Notes: a model not told the origin generated them from the letters alone. Counted from the first letter of the stretch, positions 1-14,291 are shown. The stretch is DNA of 32,000 nt from an uncultured bacterium (GCA_963699255.1 OY969425.1:1738856-1770855), one strand, 5' to 3'. Numbers and translations: made by a program.

Positions 1-510
1 GTCAGGCTTTTCGCCCCGGTGCTTTCTTTTACCGCGGAAGATATCTGGAAACACATAAAGAAATCCGAAATCCTAAATCCTAAATCCGAAATAAATCCAA
101 AATACCAAATTCCAAACAATTCAATTTTTGAGGAAAAGATGCCTGAGGTAGACAAAAAACTGCTCGACGAAAAGCTTGAATCCAAATGGGATAAGCTTCT
201 CGGGATAAGAAGCGAGGTCTACAAGGTCTTTGAGAACGCGAGGGCTGAAAAATCGATAAGCCATCCGCTTGAGGCCAGGGTGGAGGCATTAATGGAAGGG
301 GAAGACTATAAGCTGCTGAAAGATATGGAGCCGCAGCTCCCATCCCTGTTCATAGTGTCGGAATTCCTTGTAAGCAAGGGAAGCAGGAACATAACCGTAA
401 AGAAAGCCGAAGGAAAAAAGTGCGAGAGATGCTGGATGCATCTAAAGTCAGTCGGCGCAAACAGCAAGCATCCAACGTTATGTGAGAGATGCGCCGGAGT
501 GGTCGGGTGA
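1..510 (+). CDS. ileS: Isoleucyl-tRNA synthetase, C-terminal fragment (5' end outside window)
   Basis: Frame 1 is open from base 1 (VRLFAPVLSFTAEDIW...), so the listed M at 19 is internal. Ends with paired Cys knuckles KCERCW...LCERC typical of bacterial IleRS C-termini. Stop at 508-510. Confidence 0.85.
   Translation, partial: VRLFAPVLSFTAEDIWKHIKKSEILNPKSEINPKYQIPNNSIFEEKMPEVDKKLLDEKLESKWDKLLGIRSEVYKVFENARAEKSISHPLEARVEALMEGEDYKLLKDMEPQLPSLFIVSEFLVSKGSRNITVKKAEGKKCERCWMHLKSVGANSKHPTLCERCAGVVG
61..125 (+). repeat. Degenerate heptamer array inside the ileS reading frame (AAATCC GAAATCC TAAATCC TAAATCC GAAATAA ATCC...)
   Basis: Read directly: 7-nt period for the first units, decaying into A/C-rich words. 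Translated in frame as SEILNPKSEINPKYQIPNN. Confidence 0.8.
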
Positions 511-592
511 CCTGACAATTCCCCCAACTTCCTTTAATAAAGGGGTTGCGAGTTAAGCGAGCAGGGGATTCATGAATTGACCGCTGTGATCA

Positions 593-3500
593 TCAATTAT
601 TTTTTATCGCTTTCTTTCTCAAGATCACTTTACTGCCGGCCAGAACTATAATAGAATACATTCCGGCAGCTGCCCCGGAGCCATCCCACGTTTGAGAGTA
701 AACTCCCGCCTGTTGATTTTTCTGGTTCTGTGTCCATACAACATTGCCCAGAGCGTTGCAGATCGTTATCGTTACATCGCTCGTGCTTTCAAGGTTATAT
801 ACGATATTGAGATTGCCTGTAAAAGGATTCGGATAAATACTATTCAGCTTGGTTGTGGGGTAGCCCGCAATTATCCCATCGCTGTGACCAGCTAAGCTCC
901 ACAGGCCGGCTCCATCTTTGGCCTCTACATGGAAATAATATGTAACGCCTTCGGTCAGGGAAAGACCGGTCACGGTCACATCGGTATTTGTTCCGGCAGA
1001 AGTCCAGTTTATGATCTTTCCATTTTCCGGATCGGTTGGATCGGTCGATATCGTATATATATATTCTGTTACTCCTGATTCCGGGTCGGAAGAAGACCAG
1101 GCGGCATGGAACTCTGATAACGATGTGGTATATGTCCCATCATCTGTGACGACAGGCGTTGTTGGAGGCGTAGTGTCAACGGTTATCCCATCGCTGTGGA
1201 CGATGTCGCTCATCTTGCCAACTCCATTCACAGCTCTTACATGGAAATAGTAGGTTTTTCCGTTGGCCAGGTCAAGCCCTTTTGCGGTTATTTTGGTGGC
1301 ATCGGGCCCGACGGAGGTCCAGGGCAGAGCATTTTCAGCCATCCCGATCATCGGGTCATTTGGATCTGTTGATATGGCATACTCATATCCTGTTATGCCC
1401 GATTCATTATCAAAAGAAGGAGACAGAGTGGCGTCGAGCTCGGTTGAAGAGCTGGTGTATTCTCCGCTATCAGTGACAGCCGGGTCTGATGGGGGAGTGG
1501 TGTCAACAATGCCGATTTGTAAGCCGTCGCTGCTGCCGACTTCGCTCCACATGCCGGCTCCGTCTTTTGCCTTAACATGGAAATAGTAAGATTTTGTGCC
1601 GGATAAGGATAGATTATCCAGGGTTACCTGGGTATTTGTTCCGGCAGATGTCCAGGTTACGAGATTCCCGATATCCGGATCATTTGGATCGGTCGATATG
1701 GAATACATATATTCTGTCACACCTGATTCTGGATCGGAAGAAGACCAGGCTCCCTTGAGCGTGGCCGTAGGGCCGGATTTTTGTACCATGCCGTTGACAA
1801 CAGGCTTTGTAGGAGGCGTAATGTCGACTGTTATGCCGTCGCTGTGACCGGGGACGCTAAATTGGCCTGCTCCGTTCTTGGAGATCACATGGAAATAGTA
1901 AGTCTTGCCTTCCTCTAAGTTAAGGTCGGACAGGGTTATTTCGGTATCAGTTCCGGCAGATGTCCAGGGTACGATATTTTCAGGGTCCCCGATCTTCGGA
2001 TCATCCGGGTCGGTCGATACAGCATACCAATATCCTGTCACACCCGATTCATCATCTGAAGAGGACCATGTGGCATGAAGATCGGAAGATGTAGTATATT
2101 TCCCGTCGTCGGTGACATTGGGCTGTGATGGGAGTGTAGTGTCAACTTTTATCCCATCGCTGTGAACGATGTGGCTTGCCAGTCCTTCTCCATTTATGGC
2201 CTTTACATGGAAATAATAGGTTTTCCCGTTGGTCAAGTTAAGGTTGGTCGCGTTTATGTCGGTGGTATTAGGTCCGAGGGGAGTCCACTCCACGACATTG
2301 CCGGTATCCGGATCAAGCGGATCGGTAGATATTGAATATTGATATTCCTTTATTTCCGAATCCGGATCGGAAGCGGGAGACAATGCGGCATGCAGCTCGG
2401 ATGAAATGATAGTGTATACCCCGTCATCCGTTACAGCCGGGTCTGTAGGAGGAGTCGTATCCGGCGATTTAACCAGGTCTTTATAAACATTAACAAAGTT
2501 GCCTGACAGGAGCAGGGCCGCAAAACTCGCCAGAGATTGATTGTAATATAAATTCGCTACCCCTGTTTCGCTCGTATTGCCCCAGTAACCGCCGTTCGCC
2601 GCAGTCGCGTATTGAGAGAAATTGTTCTCAAATTCCGTATTAAAGGCAGACTTATAAACGGGCGATCCGCTTACCATAGCACCTGTTGCCCACATACCTG
2701 CGGTTATTTCGCTGTGCCATGCGCCCTCATTACTGGTGTAGGGAGTGCCATCCATTTTGTAAAGGATCGAATTTGCCGCTGCCGCAGCTTCGCTTCCATA
2801 TCTGCCTGTAAGGTTATTTTTCCCGTTCGTGCAATACTGGACTGCTCTCGGGTCATTGAACCAGATGGCATCAACTGCCATCATCCATGGAGTTCTTATC
2901 GCGTCGTTCCACATGTCAGCGCCATTGCTTAATGGGCCGGTAGTGCCGTACTGGCTGATCCCTCCGGTTTTGGTGTCCATCAGATCCGGGCTTAGACCGT
3001 TAGAATACCCTTGGCTTGATTGAAGGGTCGTAAAACATTGATCCACAACGGTTTTCCAGTCGTGGAAGGTTGCCTGATAGTATTGGAAGGTCTTTAGGGC
3101 AGCCGTAAAGAAATATGAAGGATTGGCCGCGTCCTTGCTAACCCAGCCGTCCCCGGGCATTAAATATTTTTTCAAGCCAACATTATCAACATCATTAGCA
3201 TATATATTATTGATAAGGTCTTGCGCTTTGCCGCTGTAATTATTGTCTGTGTCTGACCAGCAGCCGTGTTTGACAAGGGTGTCCGCGAATATCAGGGCGA
3301 GGGTGATGAAGATGTCGCCGTCAGTGGCGGATGTCGCGTCGAGAACATTATCGCCGGACTTGTCGACCGTGGCTGCGAAAAGGCCTTTACCGTCCTTATT
3401 GTGCATTTTTGCGTATGCGGCGGTCAGGATCTTATCGAAATATGTCTGGTCGCTGTTGTAAATGGCAAGAAGAAGTCCGTATCCCTGTGCTTCGGAGGTT

Positions 3501-6500
3501 GAACCTTCAGTATCAGGGGAGCCGTTGTTCCCCAATTGCGGGTTGTGGACGAGGCCCGATGTATATGCGTCGATGAAATTCGTTTTATAATTCGCCCATG
3601 TGCCGCCTATCTTGTCCTTGTAATCGCTGCCCGCTGTCGGATAGTCCGCCGAATAACACAGGAAATACAACGATCCAACCGTGTCATTCACCGTGATCCC
3701 GTCGCTGTTGCCGACATTGCTCCACATATTGGCTCCGTTCTTGGCCTTTACATGGAAGTAATAGGTTGTTCCGTTGGTCAGGGAAAGTCCGGTCTTGGTT
3801 ACTTGAGTATCTGTTTGGACAGAAGTCCAGTCAACTATCTTTCCATTCTCCGGGTCAGTTGGATCTGTTGATATGGAATACTGATATTCTGTTATGCCTG
3901 AATCCGGATCGGAAGAAGACCATGAGGCATGGAGCTGGGTTGAATAGTTCGTATATATTCCATCATCGTAGACAATAGGATCTGTAGGTGGAGTGGTGTC
4001 AACGGCAACCGTGATCCCGTCGCTGCTGCCAATATTGCTCACCAGGCCGGCCCCGTCTTTGGCTTTTACATGGAAGTAATAGGTTGTGCCATTGGTCAGG
4101 GAAAGTCCGGTCCTGGTTACTTGGGTATCTGTTTGGACAGGGGTCCAGGGTACGATGTTCCCGGTATCCGGATCGGTCGGGTCGGTGGATATGGAATACT
4201 GATATTCTGTAACACCTGATTCCGGATCTGAAGAAGACCATGAAGCGTGGAGCTGGGATAATGAGCCTGTAGATACTCCATCATCGATAACAACAGGATC
4301 TGTAGGAGGTGTGGTGTCAACGGTTATCCCGTCGCTGCTGCCGACATTGCTCCACTGGCCGGCTCCGTCTAACGCCTTTATATGGAAATAGTAGGTTTGG
4401 CCATTGGTTAAATTAAGGTTGCTTGCGGTTATGTCGGTATCAGTGCCGGCGGGAGTCCAGGGCAAAATGTTCCCGGTATCCGGATCGGTAGGATCGGTGG
4501 ATATGGAATACTGATATTCTGTAACGCCTGATTCCGGGTCTGAAGAAGAGTATGTGACATGGAGCTGGGATAAAGATGTAGCATATTTCCCATCATCATT
4601 GACAATAGGATCTGTAGGAGGTGTATCGTCAACCATTATTCCATCGCTGTTGGCAACATTGCTCCACAGGCCGGCTCCGTTCTTGGCCTTTACATGGAAA
4701 TAGTAGGTTTGGCCATTGGTTAAATTAAGGTTGCTTGCGGTTATTTCGGTATTCGTATCGGCGGTAGTCCAGGGTACGATGTTCCCGATAGTTGGATCGG
4801 TAGGATCGGTCGATATGGAATACTGATATTCTATTACGCCTGATTCCTTATCGATCGAAGGAGACCATGTGGCATGGAGCTGGGATAAAGAAAGGGTGTA
4901 TACCCCATCATCGGTGACGGCCGGATCTGAAGGGGGAGTTGTATCTGCCATCATAACCACATCTTTGTAAACATTGACAAAGTTCCCTGACAGGAGCAGA
5001 GCTGCAAAACTCGCCAGAGATTGATTGTAATAGTATTTTCCTACTCCGGGCCAGTTGCCCCAGTAACCGCCGTTCGCCGCGGTCGCATTCTGGGAAAAAT
5101 TGTTCTCAAATTCTGTATTGAAGGCGGACTGATAAACTGGCGATCCGCTTACCATAGCGCCGGTTGCCCACATACCTTCGGTCAATTCATTGTGGAATGC
5201 GCCGTCGCCATCTCCGTATGGAGTGCCGTTCATGTCGTAAAGAATTGCCTTTGACGCTGCCGTTGTTTCATCGCCATAGGAGCATGTAAGGAAAATCCTC
5301 CCGTTCTGCAAATACTCATCGGCTCTTTTGTCATTGAACCATATCTTATCAAGTGTCATCATCCATGGACCCCTTATCCCGTCGTACCACATATGATAGC
5401 CATTATCTGATGCACCTGCTGGGCCGGTATGGCCGTATTGGCTTATCCCTCCGGCTCTGGTGCACATATCCGGGGTTAAGCCGTTGGAATATCCGTCGGT
5501 CGATTGAAGGGTCGTGTAGCATTGATCGACAACGGGTTTCCAGTCGTGGAAGTTCGCCTGGTAGAATTGGAAGGTCTTTAAGGCAGCCGTGAAGAAATAT
5601 GAAGGATTGGCGGCATCCTTGCCGGTCCAACCATCCCCGGGCATCAGATACTGCCCGCCATCAACGTCGTTCGCGTATATGTTGTCGATAAGGTTCTGCG
5701 CTTTGCTGCCGTAATCATTGCCTGTGTCTGACCAGCAGCCTTGTTTGATAAGTGTATCCGCAAATATCAGGGCAAGGGTGATGAAGATATCGCCGTCAGT
5801 GGTGGATGTTGCGTCGAGAACATTATCGCCGGACATGTCAACCGTGGATGCAAAGAGGCCTTTTCCGTCCTTATCGTGCATTTTTGCGTATGCGGCGGTC
5901 AGGATCTTATCGAAATAGGTCTGGTCGCTATTATAAATGGCAAGAAGAAGTCCGTAGCCTTGCGCTTCGGAGGTTGAGCCTTCAGTATCAGGGGACCCAT
6001 TGTCTCCCAATTGCGGGTTGTGGACCAGGCCCGATGCATATGCGTCAATGAAATTCGTTTTATAATTCGCCCATGTGCCGCCTATCTTGTCCTTGTAATC
6101 GCTGCCTGCTGTCGGATAGTTCGCCGAATAACACAGGTAATACAATGGTGTTGTTATGTTATTCGCCGTGATCCCGTCGCTGTGGCCGACATTGCTCCAT
6201 AGATCGGATCCGTTCTTGGCCTTTACATGGAAGTAATAGGTAGTTCCATTGGTCAGTGTGAGCCCGGTTGCGGTCACCTGGGCATCAGTCCCTGTAGAAG
6301 TCCAGGGCACGATGTTCCCGGTATCCGGATCGGTCGGATCGGTCGATATGGAATACTGATATTCTGCAATGCCCGAATCCGGATCGGAAGAAGACCATGA
6401 GGCATGGAGCTGGGTTGCAGAGCTGGTAGTTGCCCCATCATCGGTAACGACAGGATCTGTAGGGGGTGTCAGATCAAAATTCGTAGTGATCCCATCGCTG

Positions 6501-8056
6501 CTAACGACATTACTCCACAGGCCGGCTCCGTTCTTGGCCTTTACATGGAAATAATAGGTCGTTCCGTTGGTCAGGGAAAGTCCGGTCTTGGTCACTTGAG
6601 TATCTGTTTGGACAGAAGTCCAGGGGACTATGTTCCCTGTGTCCGGATCGGTCGGATCGGTCGATATTGAATACTGATATTCTGCAATGCCTGATTCCGG
6701 GTCGGAAGAAGACCATGTAGCATGGAGCTGGCTTGGAGATGCTGTATTTGCTCCATCGTCAGTAACAATAGGGTCTGTAGGTGGAGTTGTATCCGGCGGC
6801 ACCATAAGGTCGTTGTAAACATTAACAAGGTTCCCGGACATGAGCAAAGCGGCAAAACTCGCCAGAGATTGATTGTAATATTCACTTCCTTCCCCGGACC
6901 AGTTGCCGTTGCCCCAGTATCCGCCGGTTGCCGCGGTCGCGTATTGGGAGAAATTGTTTTCAAATTCCGCATTGAAGGCGGATTTGGTATTTGGCCGTCC
7001 ACTTCCCATAGCGCCGGTCCCCCACATACCCGCGGTCATTTCACTGTGCCATGCGCCGTCACCATTGGTATATGGAGTTCCATTCATGTCATATAAAATT
7101 GCATTTGACGCTGCCGATTGTGCTGCCGAGTTGTCATCAGTATCAGTACCTGCAAGAAAGGTCATTCCGTTCTGGCAATACTGGACCGCTCTTGGATCTT
7201 TGAACCAGATGGCATCAAGTGCCATCATCCATGGAGTCCTTATCCCGTCGTACCACATATGATAGCCATTGTCTGATGGGTATGATGGGCCGGTAGTGCC
7301 ATATTGGCTTATCCCTCCGGCTCTTGTGCACAGATCCGGGCTCAGGCCGTATAAGTAGCCGTCGTATCCATCGGGATTCACCGCTTGAAGTGTCATATAG
7401 CATTGATCCACAACGGGATCCCAGTCATGGAAGTTTTTCTGGTAGTTTTTAAAGGTTTTTAAGGCAGCCGTGAAGAAGTAGGAAGGATTGGCCGCATCCT
7501 TGCTGCTCCATCCATCACCGGGCATAAGATATTTTCCGTTATCAACGTCGTTAGCGTATATGTTGTCGATAAGGTCTTGCGCTTTGCTGTCGTAATTGTT
7601 GCTTGTATCCGACCAGTAGCCTTTTTGTACAAGGATATCCGCGAATATCAGGGCGAGGGTGATGAAGGTGTCGCCGTCAGTGGCAGAGGCATAGCTGGAA
7701 TTATTCAGGTTACCGTTTATATCGACTACGGAGGCGAACAACCCTTTTCCGCTACTGCTGTTATCATGCATTTTCGCGTAGACAGCGGTCAGTATCTTAT
7801 CGAAATAGATCTGGTCATTATTGTAAAGGGCTAGAAGAAGTCCATAGCCCTGTCCTTCTGAGGTCGCGCCTTGGGTCTCATCGAAGCCGACAGTGGCCGG
7901 ATCATCCGGCAACTGCGGGTTGTGGACCAGGCCGGTGGTATAGGCGTCAATGAAATTCTTCTTATAATTCGCCCATGTGCCGCTTACCTTGTTTTTATAA
8001 TCGCTGCCCGCGGACGGGTAGCTAGCCGAATAAGGCAGAAAATACAATGGACCCAT
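593..8056 (-). CDS. Giant multidomain glycoside hydrolase: three GH8-like catalytic domains, eleven FN3-like modules, one C-terminal YPNPF sorting/FlgD-Ig-like domain (2,487 aa)
   Basis: Longest ORF in the window. The start is fixed by an in-frame TAA 9 nt upstream of the ATG and an AAGGGGG Shine-Dalgarno 4 nt upstream. GH8 hallmarks occur three times: TSE(G/A)QGYGLLLA, (A/T)TDGD-FITLALIFA (close to the GH8 signature A-[ST]-D-[AG]-D-x2-[IM]-A) and WYDGIR-PWMM. There are eleven (T/S)YYFH(V/I)-type modules (consensus TYYFHVKAKNGAG). The tail reads IYPNPFTGNLNIVY...QTWDGSGAAAGMYSIIV. Confidence 0.9.
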   Translation of the reverse strand: MGPLYFLPYSASYPSAGSDYKNKVSGTWANYKKNFIDAYTTGLVHNPQLPDDPATVGFDETQGATSEGQGYGLLLALYNNDQIYFDKILTAVYAKMHDNSSSGKGLFASVVDINGNLNNSSYASATDGDTFITLALIFADILVQKGYWSDTSNNYDSKAQDLIDNIYANDVDNGKYLMPGDGWSSKDAANPSYFFTAALKTFKNYQKNFHDWDPVVDQCYMTLQAVNPDGYDGYLYGLSPDLCTRAGGISQYGTTGPSYPSDNGYHMWYDGIRTPWMMALDAIWFKDPRAVQYCQNGMTFLAGTDTDDNSAAQSAASNAILYDMNGTPYTNGDGAWHSEMTAGMWGTGAMGSGRPNTKSAFNAEFENNFSQYATAATGGYWGNGNWSGEGSEYYNQSLASFAALLMSGNLVNVYNDLMVPPDTTPPTDPIVTDDGANTASPSQLHATWSSSDPESGIAEYQYSISTDPTDPDTGNIVPWTSVQTDTQVTKTGLSLTNGTTYYFHVKAKNGAGLWSNVVSSDGITTNFDLTPPTDPVVTDDGATTSSATQLHASWSSSDPDSGIAEYQYSISTDPTDPDTGNIVPWTSTGTDAQVTATGLTLTNGTTYYFHVKAKNGSDLWSNVGHSDGITANNITTPLYYLCYSANYPTAGSDYKDKIGGTWANYKTNFIDAYASGLVHNPQLGDNGSPDTEGSTSEAQGYGLLLAIYNSDQTYFDKILTAAYAKMHDKDGKGLFASTVDMSGDNVLDATSTTDGDIFITLALIFADTLIKQGCWSDTGNDYGSKAQNLIDNIYANDVDGGQYLMPGDGWTGKDAANPSYFFTAALKTFQFYQANFHDWKPVVDQCYTTLQSTDGYSNGLTPDMCTRAGGISQYGHTGPAGASDNGYHMWYDGIRGPWMMTLDKIWFNDKRADEYLQNGRIFLTCSYGDETTAASKAILYDMNGTPYGDGDGAFHNELTEGMWATGAMVSGSPVYQSAFNTEFENNFSQNATAANGGYWGNWPGVGKYYYNQSLASFAALLLSGNFVNVYKDVVMMADTTPPSDPAVTDDGVYTLSLSQLHATWSPSIDKESGVIEYQYSISTDPTDPTIGNIVPWTTADTNTEITASNLNLTNGQTYYFHVKAKNGAGLWSNVANSDGIMVDDTPPTDPIVNDDGKYATSLSQLHVTYSSSDPESGVTEYQYSISTDPTDPDTGNILPWTPAGTDTDITASNLNLTNGQTYYFHIKALDGAGQWSNVGSSDGITVDTTPPTDPVVIDDGVSTGSLSQLHASWSSSDPESGVTEYQYSISTDPTDPDTGNIVPWTPVQTDTQVTRTGLSLTNGTTYYFHVKAKDGAGLVSNIGSSDGITVAVDTTPPTDPIVYDDGIYTNYSTQLHASWSSSDPDSGITEYQYSISTDPTDPENGKIVDWTSVQTDTQVTKTGLSLTNGTTYYFHVKAKNGANMWSNVGNSDGITVNDTVGSLYFLCYSADYPTAGSDYKDKIGGTWANYKTNFIDAYTSGLVHNPQLGNNGSPDTEGSTSEAQGYGLLLAIYNSDQTYFDKILTAAYAKMHNKDGKGLFAATVDKSGDNVLDATSATDGDIFITLALIFADTLVKHGCWSDTDNNYSGKAQDLINNIYANDVDNVGLKKYLMPGDGWVSKDAANPSYFFTAALKTFQYYQATFHDWKTVVDQCFTTLQSSQGYSNGLSPDLMDTKTGGISQYGTTGPLSNGADMWNDAIRTPWMMAVDAIWFNDPRAVQYCTNGKNNLTGRYGSEAAAAANSILYKMDGTPYTSNEGAWHSEITAGMWATGAMVSGSPVYKSAFNTEFENNFSQYATAANGGYWGNTSETGVANLYYNQSLASFAALLLSGNFVNVYKDLVKSPDTTPPTDPAVTDDGVYTIISSELHAALSPASDPDSEIKEYQYSISTDPLDPDTGNVVEWTPLGPNTTDINATNLNLTNGKTYYFHVKAINGEGLASHIVHSDGIKVDTTLPSQPNVTDDGKYTTSSDLHATWSSSDDESGVTGYWYAVSTDPDDPKIGDPENIVPWTSAGTDTEITLSDLNLEEGKTYYFHVISKNGAGQFSVPGHSDGITVDITPPTKPVVNGMVQKSGPTATLKGAWSSSDPESGVTEYMYSISTDPNDPDIGNLVTWTSAGTNTQVTLDNLSLSGTKSYYFHVKAKDGAGMWSEVGSSDGLQIGIVDTTPPSDPAVTDSGEYTSSSTELDATLSPSFDNESGITGYEYAISTDPNDPMIGMAENALPWTSVGPDATKITAKGLDLANGKTYYFHVRAVNGVGKMSDIVHSDGITVDTTPPTTPVVTDDGTYTTSLSEFHAAWSSSDPESGVTEYIYTISTDPTDPENGKIINWTSAGTNTDVTVTGLSLTEGVTYYFHVEAKDGAGLWSLAGHSDGIIAGYPTTKLNSIYPNPFTGNLNIVYNLESTSDVTITICNALGNVVWTQNQKNQQAGVYSQTWDGSGAAAGMYSIIVLAGSKVILRKKAIKNN
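596..860 (-). other. C-terminal sorting-type beta-sandwich domain (T9SS type-A CTD / FlgD-Ig-like), approximate bounds
   Basis: YPNPF motif, alternating hydrophobic strands, a WDG...G.Y motif and a basic C-terminal end. Assigned from remembered family consensus, not a search. Confidence 0.6.
860..2470 (-). repeat. Five tandem ~100-aa FN3-like modules (modules 7-11), approximate bounds
   Basis: Repeated pattern TTPP(T/S)DP-VTDDG...LHA.WS.SD.ESG..EY.Y.ISTDP.DP..G....WTS.G..T..T...L.L..G.TYYFHV.A..GAG..S..G.SDGI.VD. Confidence 0.75.
2470..3680 (-). other. GH8-like catalytic domain, copy 3 (approximate bounds)
   Basis: Begins GSLYFLCYSADYPTAGSDYKDK. Contains STSEAQGYGLLLAIYNSDQ, SATDGDIFITLALIFAD and WNDAIRTPWMMAVD. 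Ends NFVNVYKDLVKSPD. Confidence 0.75.
3680..4950 (-). repeat. Four tandem FN3-like modules (modules 3-6), approximate bounds
   Basis: Same module consensus as 860-2470, with four TYYFH(V/I)KA motifs. Confidence 0.75.
4950..6150 (-). other. GH8-like catalytic domain, copy 2 (approximate bounds)
   Basis: Begins TPLYYLCYSANYPTAGSDYKDK. Contains STSEAQGYGLLLAIYNSDQ, STTDGDIFITLALIFAD and WYDGIRGPWMMTLD. Ends NFVNVYKDVVMMAD. Confidence 0.75.
6150..6800 (-). repeat. Two tandem FN3-like modules (modules 1-2), approximate bounds
   Basis: Same module consensus. The second module is nearly identical in DNA to the last module of the neighbouring paralog. Confidence 0.75.
6800..8056 (-). other. GH8-like catalytic domain, copy 1 (approximate bounds)
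   Basis: MGPLYFLPYSASYPSAGSDYKNK..., ATSEGQGYGLLLALYNNDQ, SATDGDTFITLALIFAD, WYDGIRTPWMMALD. Ends NLVNVYNDLMVPPD. Confidence 0.8.
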
Positions 8057-8312
8057 ATTACCCCCTTACAATATATTATCGTCACTATCTTTGCGAAATT
8101 TCACTGTTTTGATGAAATTAATATGGAGATATTTGGATATGGAGTGACGCATTCCGGCACCAGGGTTCCTCTTAGATAGGGGCGAAAAAGGTCAATATTA
8201 TGAGGTTTAATGGCAGAAAAAGCGAAAAGCGCGGGAAGCGCATTATGTTCCGTCGGTGACGGCAGGGCACATCCGCCATATGTTAACTGTGGATCCATCG
8301 TATCAGCGCCAA

Positions 8313-10467
8313 TTATTTTTTTACGACCTTTACCGTTGAGAAGGTATTGTTGCCGGCCTGGATCTGAACGTAATATATTCCGGGAGCCACGTTCGTACCA
8401 TCCCAGGGAACTTCCTGATCACCTGCCGATTGTCTGCCCGGCTCAAGAGTACTTACGACCCTGCCGAAACTGTTGTAGATCTTTATCGTTACCTCGCTTT
8501 CACTTCCGAGCTGATATTTGATCCTGATACCGGATTGGAACGGGTTTGGATAGCAAGCAGACGGTTGAGTTGTTTTGGAGGTTTCGGATATAAGCGTAGG
8601 AATATTTACTGTTATCCCGTCGCTGTGGCCGACAGTGCTCCACTGGCCCGCTCCGTTTTTGGCCATCACATGGAAGTAATAGGTGGTTCCGTTGGTCAGT
8701 GTGAGCCCGGTTGCGGTCACCTGGGCATCAGTTCCTGTAGAAGTCCAGGGCACAATGTTCCCGGTATCCGGATCGGTCGGGTCGGTTGATATTGCATACC
8801 TATATTCTGTTATTCCCGATTCATCATCAGAAGAAGACCATGAGGCATGGAGCTCGGATAAAGAGACGGTGCTTTCTCCATCATCAATGACAATAGGATC
8901 CTGAAGGGGCTGTATCGTCAAAGGTTATTCCATCGCTGTGGCCTACGTTACTTGCTAGCCCGGCTCCGTTTATGGCTTTTACATGGAAGTAATAGGTTGT
9001 TCCGTTGGTCAGTGTGAGCCCAGTTGCGGTTATGTCGGTATTTGTTCCTGCAGATGTCCAGGGGACGATGTTTCCTTTGTCCGGATCGATCGGATCGGTC
9101 GATATGGAATACTGATATTCTGTAATGCCTGATTCTGCATCAGAAGAAGACCATGAAGCATGGAGCTGGGATGTAATAATAGTATATGTTCCATCATCGG
9201 TAACAACAGGGTCTGTAGGCGGAGTTGTATCCGGCGCTTTAACCAGGTCGTTGTAAACATTGACAAGGTTCCCCGCCATGAGCAAGGCTGCAAAACTCGC
9301 CAGAGATTGATTGTAATAGTAATTCCCTTCCCCGGAGTAGTTGCCCCAGTAGCCGCCATTTTCCGCAGTCGCGTATTGAGAAAAATTGTTCTCAAATTCA
9401 GAATTAAATGCGGATTGAAAAGCTGATAGTCCGCTTCCCATAGCGCCGGTTCCCCACATACCTGTGGTCATTTCGCTATGAAATGCACCATCCGTGTTCC
9501 CGTATGCAGTGCCGTTCATTGCATAATGTATCGCGTTTGACGCTGCCGCTGTTTCGCCCCCATATAGACCGTTAAGGAAGTTCATTCCGTTCTGGCAATA
9601 TGTGACGGCTCTTTGGTCTTTGAACCAGATGGCATCAAGTGCCATCATCCATGGAGTTCTTATTGCCTGGTACCACATATCATAGCCATTGCCCGAAGGG
9701 TTATCGCCGCCCAAACCGTAAGTATTAATGCCTCCGGCTCTTGTGCACCAATCCGGGCTCAGGCCGTATAAGTAGCCGTCGTATCCATCTGGATTCACCG
9801 CTTGAAGGGTCGTATAGCATTGGTCTACCACGGTATCCCAGTCATGGAAGTTTTTCTCATAGTTTTTAAAGGTTTTTAAGGCAGCCGTAAAGAAGTAGGA
9901 AGGATTGGCCGCATCCTTGCCGCTCCAGCCGTCACCGGGCATCAAATATTTCCCGCCATCAACGTCATTAGCATAGATGTTGTCAATAAGGGCCTGCGCT
10001 TTACTGCCGTAATCGTTGCTTGTGTCTGACCAGTAGCCTTTTTGTACAAGGATATCCGCGAATATCAGGGCGAGGGTGATGAAGGTGTCGCCGTCAGTGG
10101 CGGATGAGTAATCGGAAACATTCAGATTCCCGGACTTATCGACGACGGACACGAAGAGGCCTTTTCCGTCCTTATCGTGCATTTTTGCATAAGTAGCGGT
10201 CAGGATGTTATCAAAGTAAGCCTGGTCGCCATTGTAAAGGGCAAGAAGAAGTCCGTAGCCCTGACCTTCAGAAGTCGCGCCTTGGGTCTCATCAAAGCCG
10301 ACAGTGACCGGATCGTCCGGCAACTGCGGGTTGTGGACCAGGCCGGTGGTATAGGCGTCAATGAAATTCTTCTTATAATTCGCCCATGTGCCGCTTACCT
10401 TGTTTTTATAATCGCTGCCCGCGGACGGGTAGCTAGCCGAATAAGGCAGAAAATACAATGGACCCAT
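8313..10467 (-). pseudogene. One-unit paralog (GH8 - module - module - YPNPF tail) interrupted by a +1 frameshift near 8900
   Basis: ORFs 8884..10467 and 8313..8921 overlap and together reproduce the unit architecture. Their frames differ by one base. Hand alignment with the paralogous junctions (..DTTPPSDP.V.DDG) indicates one extra C in GGATCCTG (8896-8903). Deleting it restores ..FDDTAPSDPIVIDDG... Confidence 0.75.
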
Positions 10468-10569
10468 ATTACCCCCTTACGATATGTTATCGTCCCTTTC
10501 TTTTTAAAATTTCATTATTGGCGGAAAATATTTTCATATATAATAAGACAGATATGATATAATCCATAA

Positions 10570-11838
<1,269 letters not shown>

Positions 11839-11887
11839 GATAGGGGATAGAGATTAGGGACCGGATGTCAGGGAAAGGAAATATCAA
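11839..11887 (+). repeat. Seven in-phase degenerate heptamers (GATAGGG GATAGAG ATTAGGG ACCGGAT GTCAGGG AAAGGAA ATATCAA) running up to the ATG at 11888
   Basis: Read directly. Exactly 49 nt (7 x 7) between the ahcY stop region and the next start codon. Confidence 0.6.
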
Positions 11888-12226
11888 ATGGACGAAAAAG
11901 AATTAACTTTGCTGGACAGGTTGAATAAGAACGTTGAAAAACTGGCTTCTCATTTTGAAAAAGCGAACATTCAGGAATACGTGAAGTACGTGGGAAGCCC
12001 CTGGAAAATACTGTTCACCAACCTTCTCGCGGGGATCATGCGCGGCTTCGGGCTCGCGATCGGGATGACGATCATCCTTGCTGTCATAATGATAATCATC
12101 ACAAAGATACTATCCCACCTCATAACGCTCCCATTCGTGGGGCAGCAGGTGGCCCAGCTTGTTCAAATGGTGAATTCATATTTGCAGGAAGGGACAAAGA
12201 TCAAGCTGGATTCCGGAGGGATGTAG
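11888..12226 (+). CDS. Small membrane protein (DUF5665-like from memory)
   Basis: 112 aa with one or two hydrophobic helices (LLAGIMRGFGLAIGMTIILAVIMIIITKIL). Tightly packed in the operon, with its stop abutting the lspA start. Confidence 0.65.
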   Translation: MDEKELTLLDRLNKNVEKLASHFEKANIQEYVKYVGSPWKILFTNLLAGIMRGFGLAIGMTIILAVIMIIITKILSHLITLPFVGQQVAQLVQMVNSYLQEGTKIKLDSGGM

Positions 12227-13356: not shown

Positions 13357-14291
13357 TAGTCAAACCTGATATGCCCAGAGAGAGGATCGACATCTTTCTT
13401 TCCAGGGAAATAGGACTATCTAGGTCGCAGATCGACAAGCTGATCAAAGGCGGACAGGTAAAGCTGAACAACACAGCGGCCAAGCCCGGTTACAGGGTAA
13501 GGAAGGATGACAGGATAATCGTGTGCGTCCCTTCTCCGGCAGAGATCGCAGCCCGACCGGAAGACATTCCCCTTAATATCGTTTATGAGGACAAGGATAT
13601 AATCATTATAGATAAGCCTCCGGGCATTGTCGTTCATCCCGCCGCGGGCAACTTGCAGGGCACTCTCGTGAACGCGCTGCTTCATCACTGCAGGGACCTC
13701 GCCGGGATCGGCGGGAGCATACGCCCGGGAGTGGTGCACAGGCTCGACAAAGACACGTCCGGATTGATCGTTTTTGCGAAGAACGACGCTTCCCACCAGG
13801 ATCTCGCAAAGCAGTTCAAGAACAGGGAAGTAAAAAAGACGTATCTGGCGCTTGTCCATGGAGAGATCGAGAACGATTCAGGCGAGATAAATGCTCCCCT
13901 CGGCAGGCATCCCGTGCACAGGAAAAAGATGGCCGTGATAAGCGCCGAGGGCGTTAAGAAACGCGAAGCGCTTACATGTTACAGGGTCCTAAAAAGGTTC
14001 TCAACAAAAGATGGGAAGTACACACTTGTCGAGCTGGACCTGAAAACGGGGCGGACTCACCAGATAAGGGTCCATCTTTCTTATATAAGGCATCCTGTTG
14101 TCGGTGACAGGACTTATTCGAAGATGAAGGACGGGTTTGGTGCCTCAAGGCAGTTCCTTCACGCGAGCCAGCTTTCATTTCATCATCCGGTAACGGGAAA
14201 ATATTTGGAGTTCAGGTCCGATCTGCCTGAGGACATGAAAAAGGTCTTGGGAGCTTTAGTAGAGAATATATCCGGCGGCAATACCGCATAG
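13323..14291 (+). CDS. rluD: RluA-family 23S rRNA pseudouridine synthase (RluD-like)
   Basis: S4-like N-terminus (RIDIFLSREIGLSRSQIDKLIKGGQVKLN) and catalytic HRLDKDTSGLIVFAKN. The start may be the ATG at 13335. Confidence 0.85.
   Translation: MHIIMEKAYDIIVKPDMPRERIDIFLSREIGLSRSQIDKLIKGGQVKLNNTAAKPGYRVRKDDRIIVCVPSPAEIAARPEDIPLNIVYEDKDIIIIDKPPGIVVHPAAGNLQGTLVNALLHHCRDLAGIGGSIRPGVVHRLDKDTSGLIVFAKNDASHQDLAKQFKNREVKKTYLALVHGEIENDSGEINAPLGRHPVHRKKMAVISAEGVKKREALTCYRVLKRFSTKDGKYTLVELDLKTGRTHQIRVHLSYIRHPVVGDRTYSKMKDGFGASRQFLHASQLSFHHPVTGKYLEFRSDLPEDMKKVLGALVENISGGNTA

Follow-up and report, generated by a model that had tools for sequence, protein, structure and literature searches.

In-place expansion of a glycoside hydrolase family 8 locus in an uncultured bacterium, probably through one in-frame junction, unequal exchange and gene conversion

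How does a bacterial gene come to encode three copies of a catalytic domain in one polypeptide, and why does it begin with the same nucleotides as the gene beside it? These questions are raised by a window of 32,000 nucleotides (nt) from an uncultured bacterium (GCA_963699255.1 OY969425.1:1738856-1770855), the final 32 kb of a one-contig genome of 1.77 Mb, in which a pair of genes with glycoside hydrolase family 8 (GH8) domains sits between ileS and ahcY. We consider it probable, at roughly 0.8, that this locus grew in place from a single gene by tandem duplication, formation of a junction between units, unequal exchange and gene conversion that is still going on. Positions are counted from the first letter of the window, and all features of the two GH8 genes lie on its minus strand.

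The giant gene (593-8056) is an open reading frame (ORF) whose translation has 2487 amino acids (aa). It encodes, in order, a first GH8 domain that bears the free N-terminus (G1, 6794-8056), modules m1-m2 (6158-6793), a middle GH8 domain (G2, 4946-6157), modules m3-m6 (3683-4945), a last GH8 domain (G3, 2462-3682), modules m7-m11 (860-2461) and a C-terminal sorting tail (T1). The neighbour gene (8313-10467) encodes a single unit consisting of a GH8 domain (GN, 9232-10467), two modules (n1, 8920-9231, and n2, 8604-8919) and a tail (TN, 8316-8603). The count of four GH8 copies and thirteen modules given by an earlier reading of the sequence alone (below, the sequence-only reading) was correct.

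The nearest relative of this genome is represented by a contig from a JGI metagenome (L022). Between the two, the Lon, ClpX, ClpP, Tig and IleRS N-terminal parts share 91-96% protein identity, and the synonymous divergence (dS) of housekeeping genes is 0.43-0.61. Its gene order is a neighbour-type gene, a homologous spacer, a gene of 1860 aa, ileS, lon, clpX, clpP and tig. The neighbour-type gene, which is cut off at the contig end, has a GH8 domain (RN), two modules and a tail (TRN); the 1860-aa gene has a GH8 domain (R1), four modules, a second GH8 domain (R2), five modules and a tail (TR). The slot holds 1+2 GH8 domains in L022 and 1+3 in this genome. The sequence-only reading had suggested comparing related genomes for unfused forms, and single-unit genes were found in the same slot: in L023, L024/L025 and L026 a single GH8-tail gene, of 520-580 aa, separates ahcY from ileS, and the wider gene order is the same. 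The window shares these two flanks. L026 comes from an NCBI metagenome-assembled genome (MAG) labelled Candidatus Margulisiibacteriota. In G002, a member of the same family, the slot is empty, with 21 nt between ileS and ahcY (L031:201-223). The single-gene loci point to one free-standing GH8-tail gene as the ancestral state of the slot, and because the slot has been observed empty, with one gene, with 1+2 domains and with 1+3 domains, the present locus is read as an expansion in place.

The single-unit genes can also be compared through their proteins. In the three loci fetched (those of P0004, P0005 and P0007) the flanking genes and their orientation are those of the locus described here; the MAG that P0005 belongs to is an NCBI one with the label Candidatus Margulisiibacteriota. 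The promoter-like leader of the locus genes is kept in P0004 and P0007, and P0004, P0005, P0007 and P0008 have a tail of the same kind. They differ in having one GH8 domain and none or one fn3-like module, and their GH8 domains are 46-61% identical to the window copies. In further searches, relatives in GTDB had a GH8 identity of at most 36%, a scan of genome contigs gave no further relatives, a scan of metagenomes gave only L023, and in protein searches (with candidate lengths of about 290-4350 aa taken together) the only multi-GH8 relative was P0028. In G001, another member of the family (L032 about 13898-13928), ileS directly adjoins ahcY and there is no GH8 gene between them; its ahcY and ileS both appear to be broken by frameshifts.

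The long genes of the two close relatives differ by one unit. Over 5349 nt, at 75% identity, the L022 gene in its full length is colinear with the stretch from G2 to m11 (G2, m3-m6, G3, m7-m11). Modules m1-m2 align best to L022 modules rc-rd, and m2 is of the rd type, the kind found ahead of a GH8 domain. In the module tree m7 pairs with re (support 100), m8 with rf (99), m10 with rh (95) and m11 with ri (97), and m9 and rg are neighbours, although this pair is not resolved. Modules m7-m11 are a stable 3' part, which keeps the order re-ri with four of the five pairs as supported clades. The modules upstream of m7 cluster by genome (m3 with m4; m5 and m6 with m1). Among the GH8 domains, G3 is co-orthologous to R2, and the protein tree has the form (R2,(G2,G3)), with support of 97/95 and 100/99. 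G2 and G3 are thus each other's closest relatives; the opposite result, which the sequence-only reading would have taken as refuting its fusion model, was not obtained. They share a derived deletion of 4 residues. G2 is a chimera by sliding identity, segment trees and indel characters: its 5' portion of about 450 nt is G3-like (87-96% identity), and its middle part is G1/R1-like. A segment tree of columns 181-450 recovers (G2,G3) at 100/99, a tree of columns 700-1000 separates {R2,G3,RN} from {G2,G1,GN,R1} at 95/93, and several indel characters are common to different positions of the GH8 copies.

For the third unit, the best explanation is an unequal homologous exchange within a gene that was already fused, which would have been followed by loss of modules. 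The same exchange has a reciprocal product, so the three-GH8 gene might be the ancestral one and L022 might have lost a unit by deletion between G1-type and G2-type copies. With two genomes this is equally simple. It would also fit R1, whose start is of the N-terminal type and whose middle part is of type A, as in G1 and G2, and the dS of G2 to G1, G3 and R2 in the 3' two-thirds, which at 0.58-0.70 is near the between-genome level. However, the 100/99 clade of G2 and G3 excludes R2, the 4-residue deletion is derived and common to G2 and G3, modules m1, m5 and m6 cluster within this genome, and the outgroup series runs from 1 to 1+2 to 1+3. We therefore regard ancestral possession of three domains as possible but rather unlikely, and in a direct choice between gain of a unit here and reciprocal deletion in L022 we lean modestly towards gain.

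The internal junctions bear on how the units were first joined in frame. The sequence-only reading had noted that the internal GH8 copies begin at ..TPLYYLCYSANYP and ..GSLYFLCYSADYP, colinear with the N-terminal MGPLYFLPYSASYP of both genes, and this was confirmed: their first residues correspond to residue 3-4 of the free N-terminus. The junctions m2|G2 (6146-6163), m6|G3 (3671-3688) and, in L022, rd|R2 are homologous and of equal length (18 nt). Since they are homologous and equally long, they indicate one founding junction older than the split from L022, not serial fusions. Of the two internal junctions in the window, the second was copied from the founding one, and there was at most one fusion. 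This leaves little room for the strict form of the model of the sequence-only reading, in which the giant ORF would have arisen by successive head-to-tail fusions of complete GH8-module-tail genes, each independently losing a tail, a stop, a spacer and a start; fusion is supported in a weaker form only. Two elements of the model stand, namely a free-standing GH8-tail gene as the ancestral unit and internal copies that begin at the free N-terminus; the serial fusions and independent junctions are not supported. A further resemblance on its side, between the junction AATAACAT(A)/ACA/ACG and the L022 leader and start GATAACATG, is a weak match (ATAACAT) that was found post hoc; it may be what is left of a leader and of an ATG that has mutated. 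Against successive fusion, the G2, G3 and R2 junctions are homologous, all of 18 nt, and hence copies of one event; no relic of a tail, stop or intergenic spacer is found in the 18-nt junctions; the stretch from G2 to m11 is colinear with the whole L022 gene; and G2 is a chimera of existing copies. Strictly serial fusion is accordingly improbable. The founding junction itself may have come from the fusion of two tandem genes by a deletion between them or from a one-step internal duplication.

Interlocus gene conversion, or concerted evolution, is well supported at this locus. As the sequence-only reading had it, 7905-8069 in the giant gene and 10316-10480 in the neighbour are identical over 165 nt, and this block takes in 152 coding nt with the ATG (codons 1-51) and 13 nt of leader with AAGGGGG. 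Beyond the block, a similarity of about 90% runs to about 7761 and upstream to about 8104, and then ends. The identical run between GN and G1 contains 38 variable sites, and in a Sawyer-type run test none of 5000 permutations reached such a length. A second exact run of 74 nt lies at 7611-7684 (partner 10028-10101). The close match noted earlier between 6224-6349 and 8667-8792 also holds, with differences at 7 of 126 nt; it belongs to a module patch of 136 nt (6216-6351) that is 93% identical to 8659-8794 in n2 and holds an exact run of 41 nt. Altogether, seven patches of high identity lie along the colinear arrays [GN n1 n2] of the neighbour and [G1 m1 m2] of the first unit, and they include exact runs of 165, 74, 41, 41, 39 and 31 nt.

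Over the whole domain, nucleotide identity is 84% for GN-G1 and 82% for RN-R1, as against 75% for both GN-RN and G1-R1, and the protein tree groups the first domains by genome, with (GN,G1) at 100/100 and (RN,R1) at 90/94. Nevertheless, the neighbour is older than the split from L022, because TN and TRN are 81.6% identical in nucleotide sequence, the intergenic spacer is homologous and the gene order is common to both genomes. The dS of GN-G1 is 0.049 over codons 1-64 and 0.5-0.8 over the remainder, while that of G1-R1 is 0.88 over the same codons. Just 3' of the block, G1 keeps residues of the outgroup P0004 and GN keeps residues of L022, which indicates that both copies are old and that the block is a recent overwrite. 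In L022, RN and R1 are identical over the first 131 nt of the contig, after which identity falls off in a similar way. Conversion, which the sequence-only reading suspected to be ongoing, is thus supported, and it is broader than proposed, since it includes seven patches along the neighbour and the first unit as well as exchange among the internal copies. Domain trees here mirror concerted evolution and not gene history, which calls for caution in the annotation and phylogeny of such enzymes.

The block could also be identical because the first unit was duplicated very recently, or because selection acts on its nucleotides, for instance as those of a translation-initiation element or leader RNA. 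In favour of this, distant relatives keep the leader and promoter, and [GN n1 n2] is colinear with [G1 m1 m2]. Yet L022 has orthologs of the neighbour, of its tail and of its spacer, GN and G1 have diverged outside the block, and the residues just 3' of the block are of outgroup type in G1 and of L022 type in GN; and the same codons that are almost unchanged between the paralogs have a dS of 0.88 between orthologs. No Rfam match was obtained in 1-12000, and the predicted fold of the 165-nt block is no better than that of shuffled sequences (z = +1.19). Recent duplication or nucleotide-level selection is largely refuted by the synonymous-site comparison, and is very improbable. That the block is a collapsed or copied repeat of the assembly is hardly credible: the assembly does have probable 1-nt indel errors, but these would reduce identity and not produce it, the genome forms a single contig of 1.77 Mb, similarity falls gradually on either side of the block and gives way to unique sequence, and the order of tail, spacer and first GH8 domain recurs together with a 5' exact repeat in the independent metagenome assembly of L022.

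The earlier proposal had extended conversion to the promoters as well as the 5' ends of the two genes. Conversion of the 5' ends holds, but the promoters must be set apart from it. The leader of the giant gene (8057-8104) has the promoter-like arrangement GTGAAA, an 18-nt spacer and GATAAT, then AAGGGGG, and is conserved in L022, L023 and L024; that of the neighbour (10468-10515) has ATGAAA, an 18-nt spacer and GATAAC. The homology of the two leaders ends at about -49, at the -35-like hexamer. The -35/-10 pair lies outside the identical block, which begins just 13 nt upstream of the ATG. The pattern of (T/G)TGAAA, 18-nt spacer, GATAAT and GGGGG ribosome-binding site is kept in G1, L022, P0004 and P0007, and since it is kept even in distant single-copy relatives, the similarity of the promoters is attributed to selection, not conversion. 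The sequence agtgacgataat upstream of both ATGs was also considered as the remnant of the end of a module (SDG..), in which case a gene fission would have to be assumed. This was rejected: the element GACGATAA is also present in the leaders of single-unit outgroups that lack such modules, and is part of the promoter-like -35/-10.

From these patterns we infer recombination as the mechanism, together with an order and a direction of events. The ancestor would have been one gene with a GH8 endoglucanase-like domain and a C-terminal sorting tail. Before the split from L022, tandem duplication would have given rise to the neighbour and a second gene, fn3-like modules would have been acquired, and in one copy a single junction, joining a module end to the first GH8 codons, would have added a second GH8 domain in frame. 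After or around the split, unequal exchange between repeats of the two-GH8 gene may have added the third GH8 domain, giving the chimeric G2 and the copied junction, unless a reciprocal deletion removed one unit in L022. Throughout, homologous recombination would copy short tracts between direct repeats. The youngest of these tracts would be the 165-nt block at both 5' ends, and older ones would be scattered over the neighbour and the first unit, with others between the internal copies.

Several points weigh against this history. The collections searched hold one close relative only, and with two genomes a gain here and a loss in L022 are not distinguishable. Conversion can mimic the clade of G2 and G3, and the mosaic of G2 is not that of a clean single crossover. 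The identical 131 nt of RN are the last part of a contig, and contigs tend to break off at repeats; they show that there is a repeat, but not its length. Finally, both the assembly of the repeat region and the frameshift described next are taken from the assembled sequence by itself.

The neighbour has one unit, as the sequence-only reading said, but it is not a single ORF as assembled. A 1-nt insertion at 8900-8901, giving GG where the aligned modules have a single G, causes a frameshift that splits the gene into 8884-10467 (527 aa) and 8313-8921 (202 aa). None of eight aligned modules, paralogous and orthologous, has the extra G, and the L022 ortholog of the neighbour reads intact through the site. 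In the same assembly the essential ileS is also broken by a 1-nt insertion, at G000:C1 about 1738567 (L033:12567-12569), some 290 nt before window position 1, and is read as 673 aa with the remaining ~260 aa in the next frame. Because of this similar insertion, the frameshift in the neighbour may be a consensus error.

The conserved flanks of the locus are the 3' end of ileS (1-510) and ahcY (10585-11838), both on the plus strand. Identity of IleRS to that of L022 is 94% over the first 667 residues but only 50% over the last ~170 (window 1-510 compared with L022:7725-8237). Divergence is unusually high in the adjacent tail T1 too, which has 55% nucleotide identity to TR against 75% for the next module. 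The 3' ends of ileS and of the giant gene may have been replaced in one lineage. In a search for a donor of the divergent T1, the only other related tail in the genome was TN, with 40% aa identity.

The Glyco_hydro_8 profile (PF01270, cut-off 24) matches the giant protein with 253.9 bits over 3 stretches and the neighbour with 107.3 bits. The T9SS type-A C-terminal sorting domain (Por_Secre_tail, PF18962, cut-off 27) matches T1 with 40.8 bits and TN with 44.3 bits, and there are overlapping FlgD_ig matches. The modules of the giant protein are fn3-like. A module of this kind, of ~105 residues (DTTPPTDP..YYFHVKA..), recurs at 35-58% identity in P0027 and many other matches, giant proteins of the PQQ-propeller, cysteine-protease and FG-GAP kinds from Armatimonadota, Elusimicrobia and others. 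It seems to be a spacer module that many surface proteins have in common.

The best match of known structure is CelA of C. (Acetivibrio) thermocellum, a GH8 endoglucanase (PDB 1CEM, 1KWF; E 6e-33). The glutamate of the catalytic acid (CelA Glu95, motif SE(G/A)QGYG) is unvaried in all seven copies of the two loci and in P0004, and aligns with the position mutated in the E95Q structure 1KWF. The position of the presumed catalytic base (motif WYD(A/G)IR), which from the chain offset we take to be that of Asp278 in CelA, is Asp in G1, G2, G3, R1, R2 and RN. It is Asn in P0004 and Gln267 in GN, where the codon at 9667-9669 is CAG and the other six copies have GAC. The likeness to CelA lies in the kept acid position of all copies and the kept base position of G1, G2 and G3; the differences are the Gln in GN, a low identity and a match that spans residues 60-297 only. 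The ratio of nonsynonymous to synonymous divergence (dN/dS) is ~0.2 in every pair of GH8 copies, GN included, from which it follows that all copies, GN included, have evolved under constraint.

CelA also differs in having one catalytic domain and a dockerin. By inspection, not by a predictor, no N-terminal Sec signal peptide was seen in the giant or the neighbour protein: both start MGPLYFLPYS.. (start codons at 8054-8056 and 10465-10467), nothing hydrophobic follows, and 12 nt upstream the frame has a stop. P0004, P0007 and P0008 start M..LYFLPYS and have no signal peptide either; the start of P0005 is more divergent, also without one. The GH8-tail family combines a C-terminal domain of the Por_Secre_tail/FlgD_ig type with the absence of an N-terminal signal peptide.

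Two known systems offer parallels. The textbook case of interlocus conversion and concerted evolution of bacterial tandem paralogs is tufA/tufB. The GH8 locus resembles such cases in that paralogs within a genome are closer than orthologs across genomes, exact tracts lie in a diverged background, segment trees conflict and synonymous divergence is low inside the tracts. It differs in that the partners include domains within one polypeptide as well as a separate gene, and in that the same 5' homogenization is seen independently in two sister lineages. In the Alp/Rib family and the staphylococcal Sdr proteins, repeat number changes by unequal recombination in tandem modules. Here too, modules are repeated in frame, their number differs between close relatives and they cluster by genome; unlike in those proteins, the repeat unit is not a structural repeat alone but holds a whole catalytic domain of ~400 residues together with its modules. 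In the literature, nothing was found on GH8 in Margulisbacteria, on tandem GH8 domains or on this locus.

The locus is thus a clean instance of known processes, interlocus conversion and unequal recombination, and reveals no new mechanism. A more ambitious interpretation, which we offer as speculative and doubtful, is a recombination-driven “valency accordion”. The number of GH8 domains per surface or secreted polypeptide would change among very close relatives (2 vs 3), perhaps even within populations, the neighbour would serve mainly as a donor that keeps the expressed 5' end uniform, and export in a Margulisiibacteriota-like lineage would depend on the tail without an N-terminal signal peptide. 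What the locus does provide is a well-resolved natural series in one conserved slot among related uncultured bacteria, in which a protein with several catalytic domains would have been built by one founding junction and then by ordinary homologous exchange.

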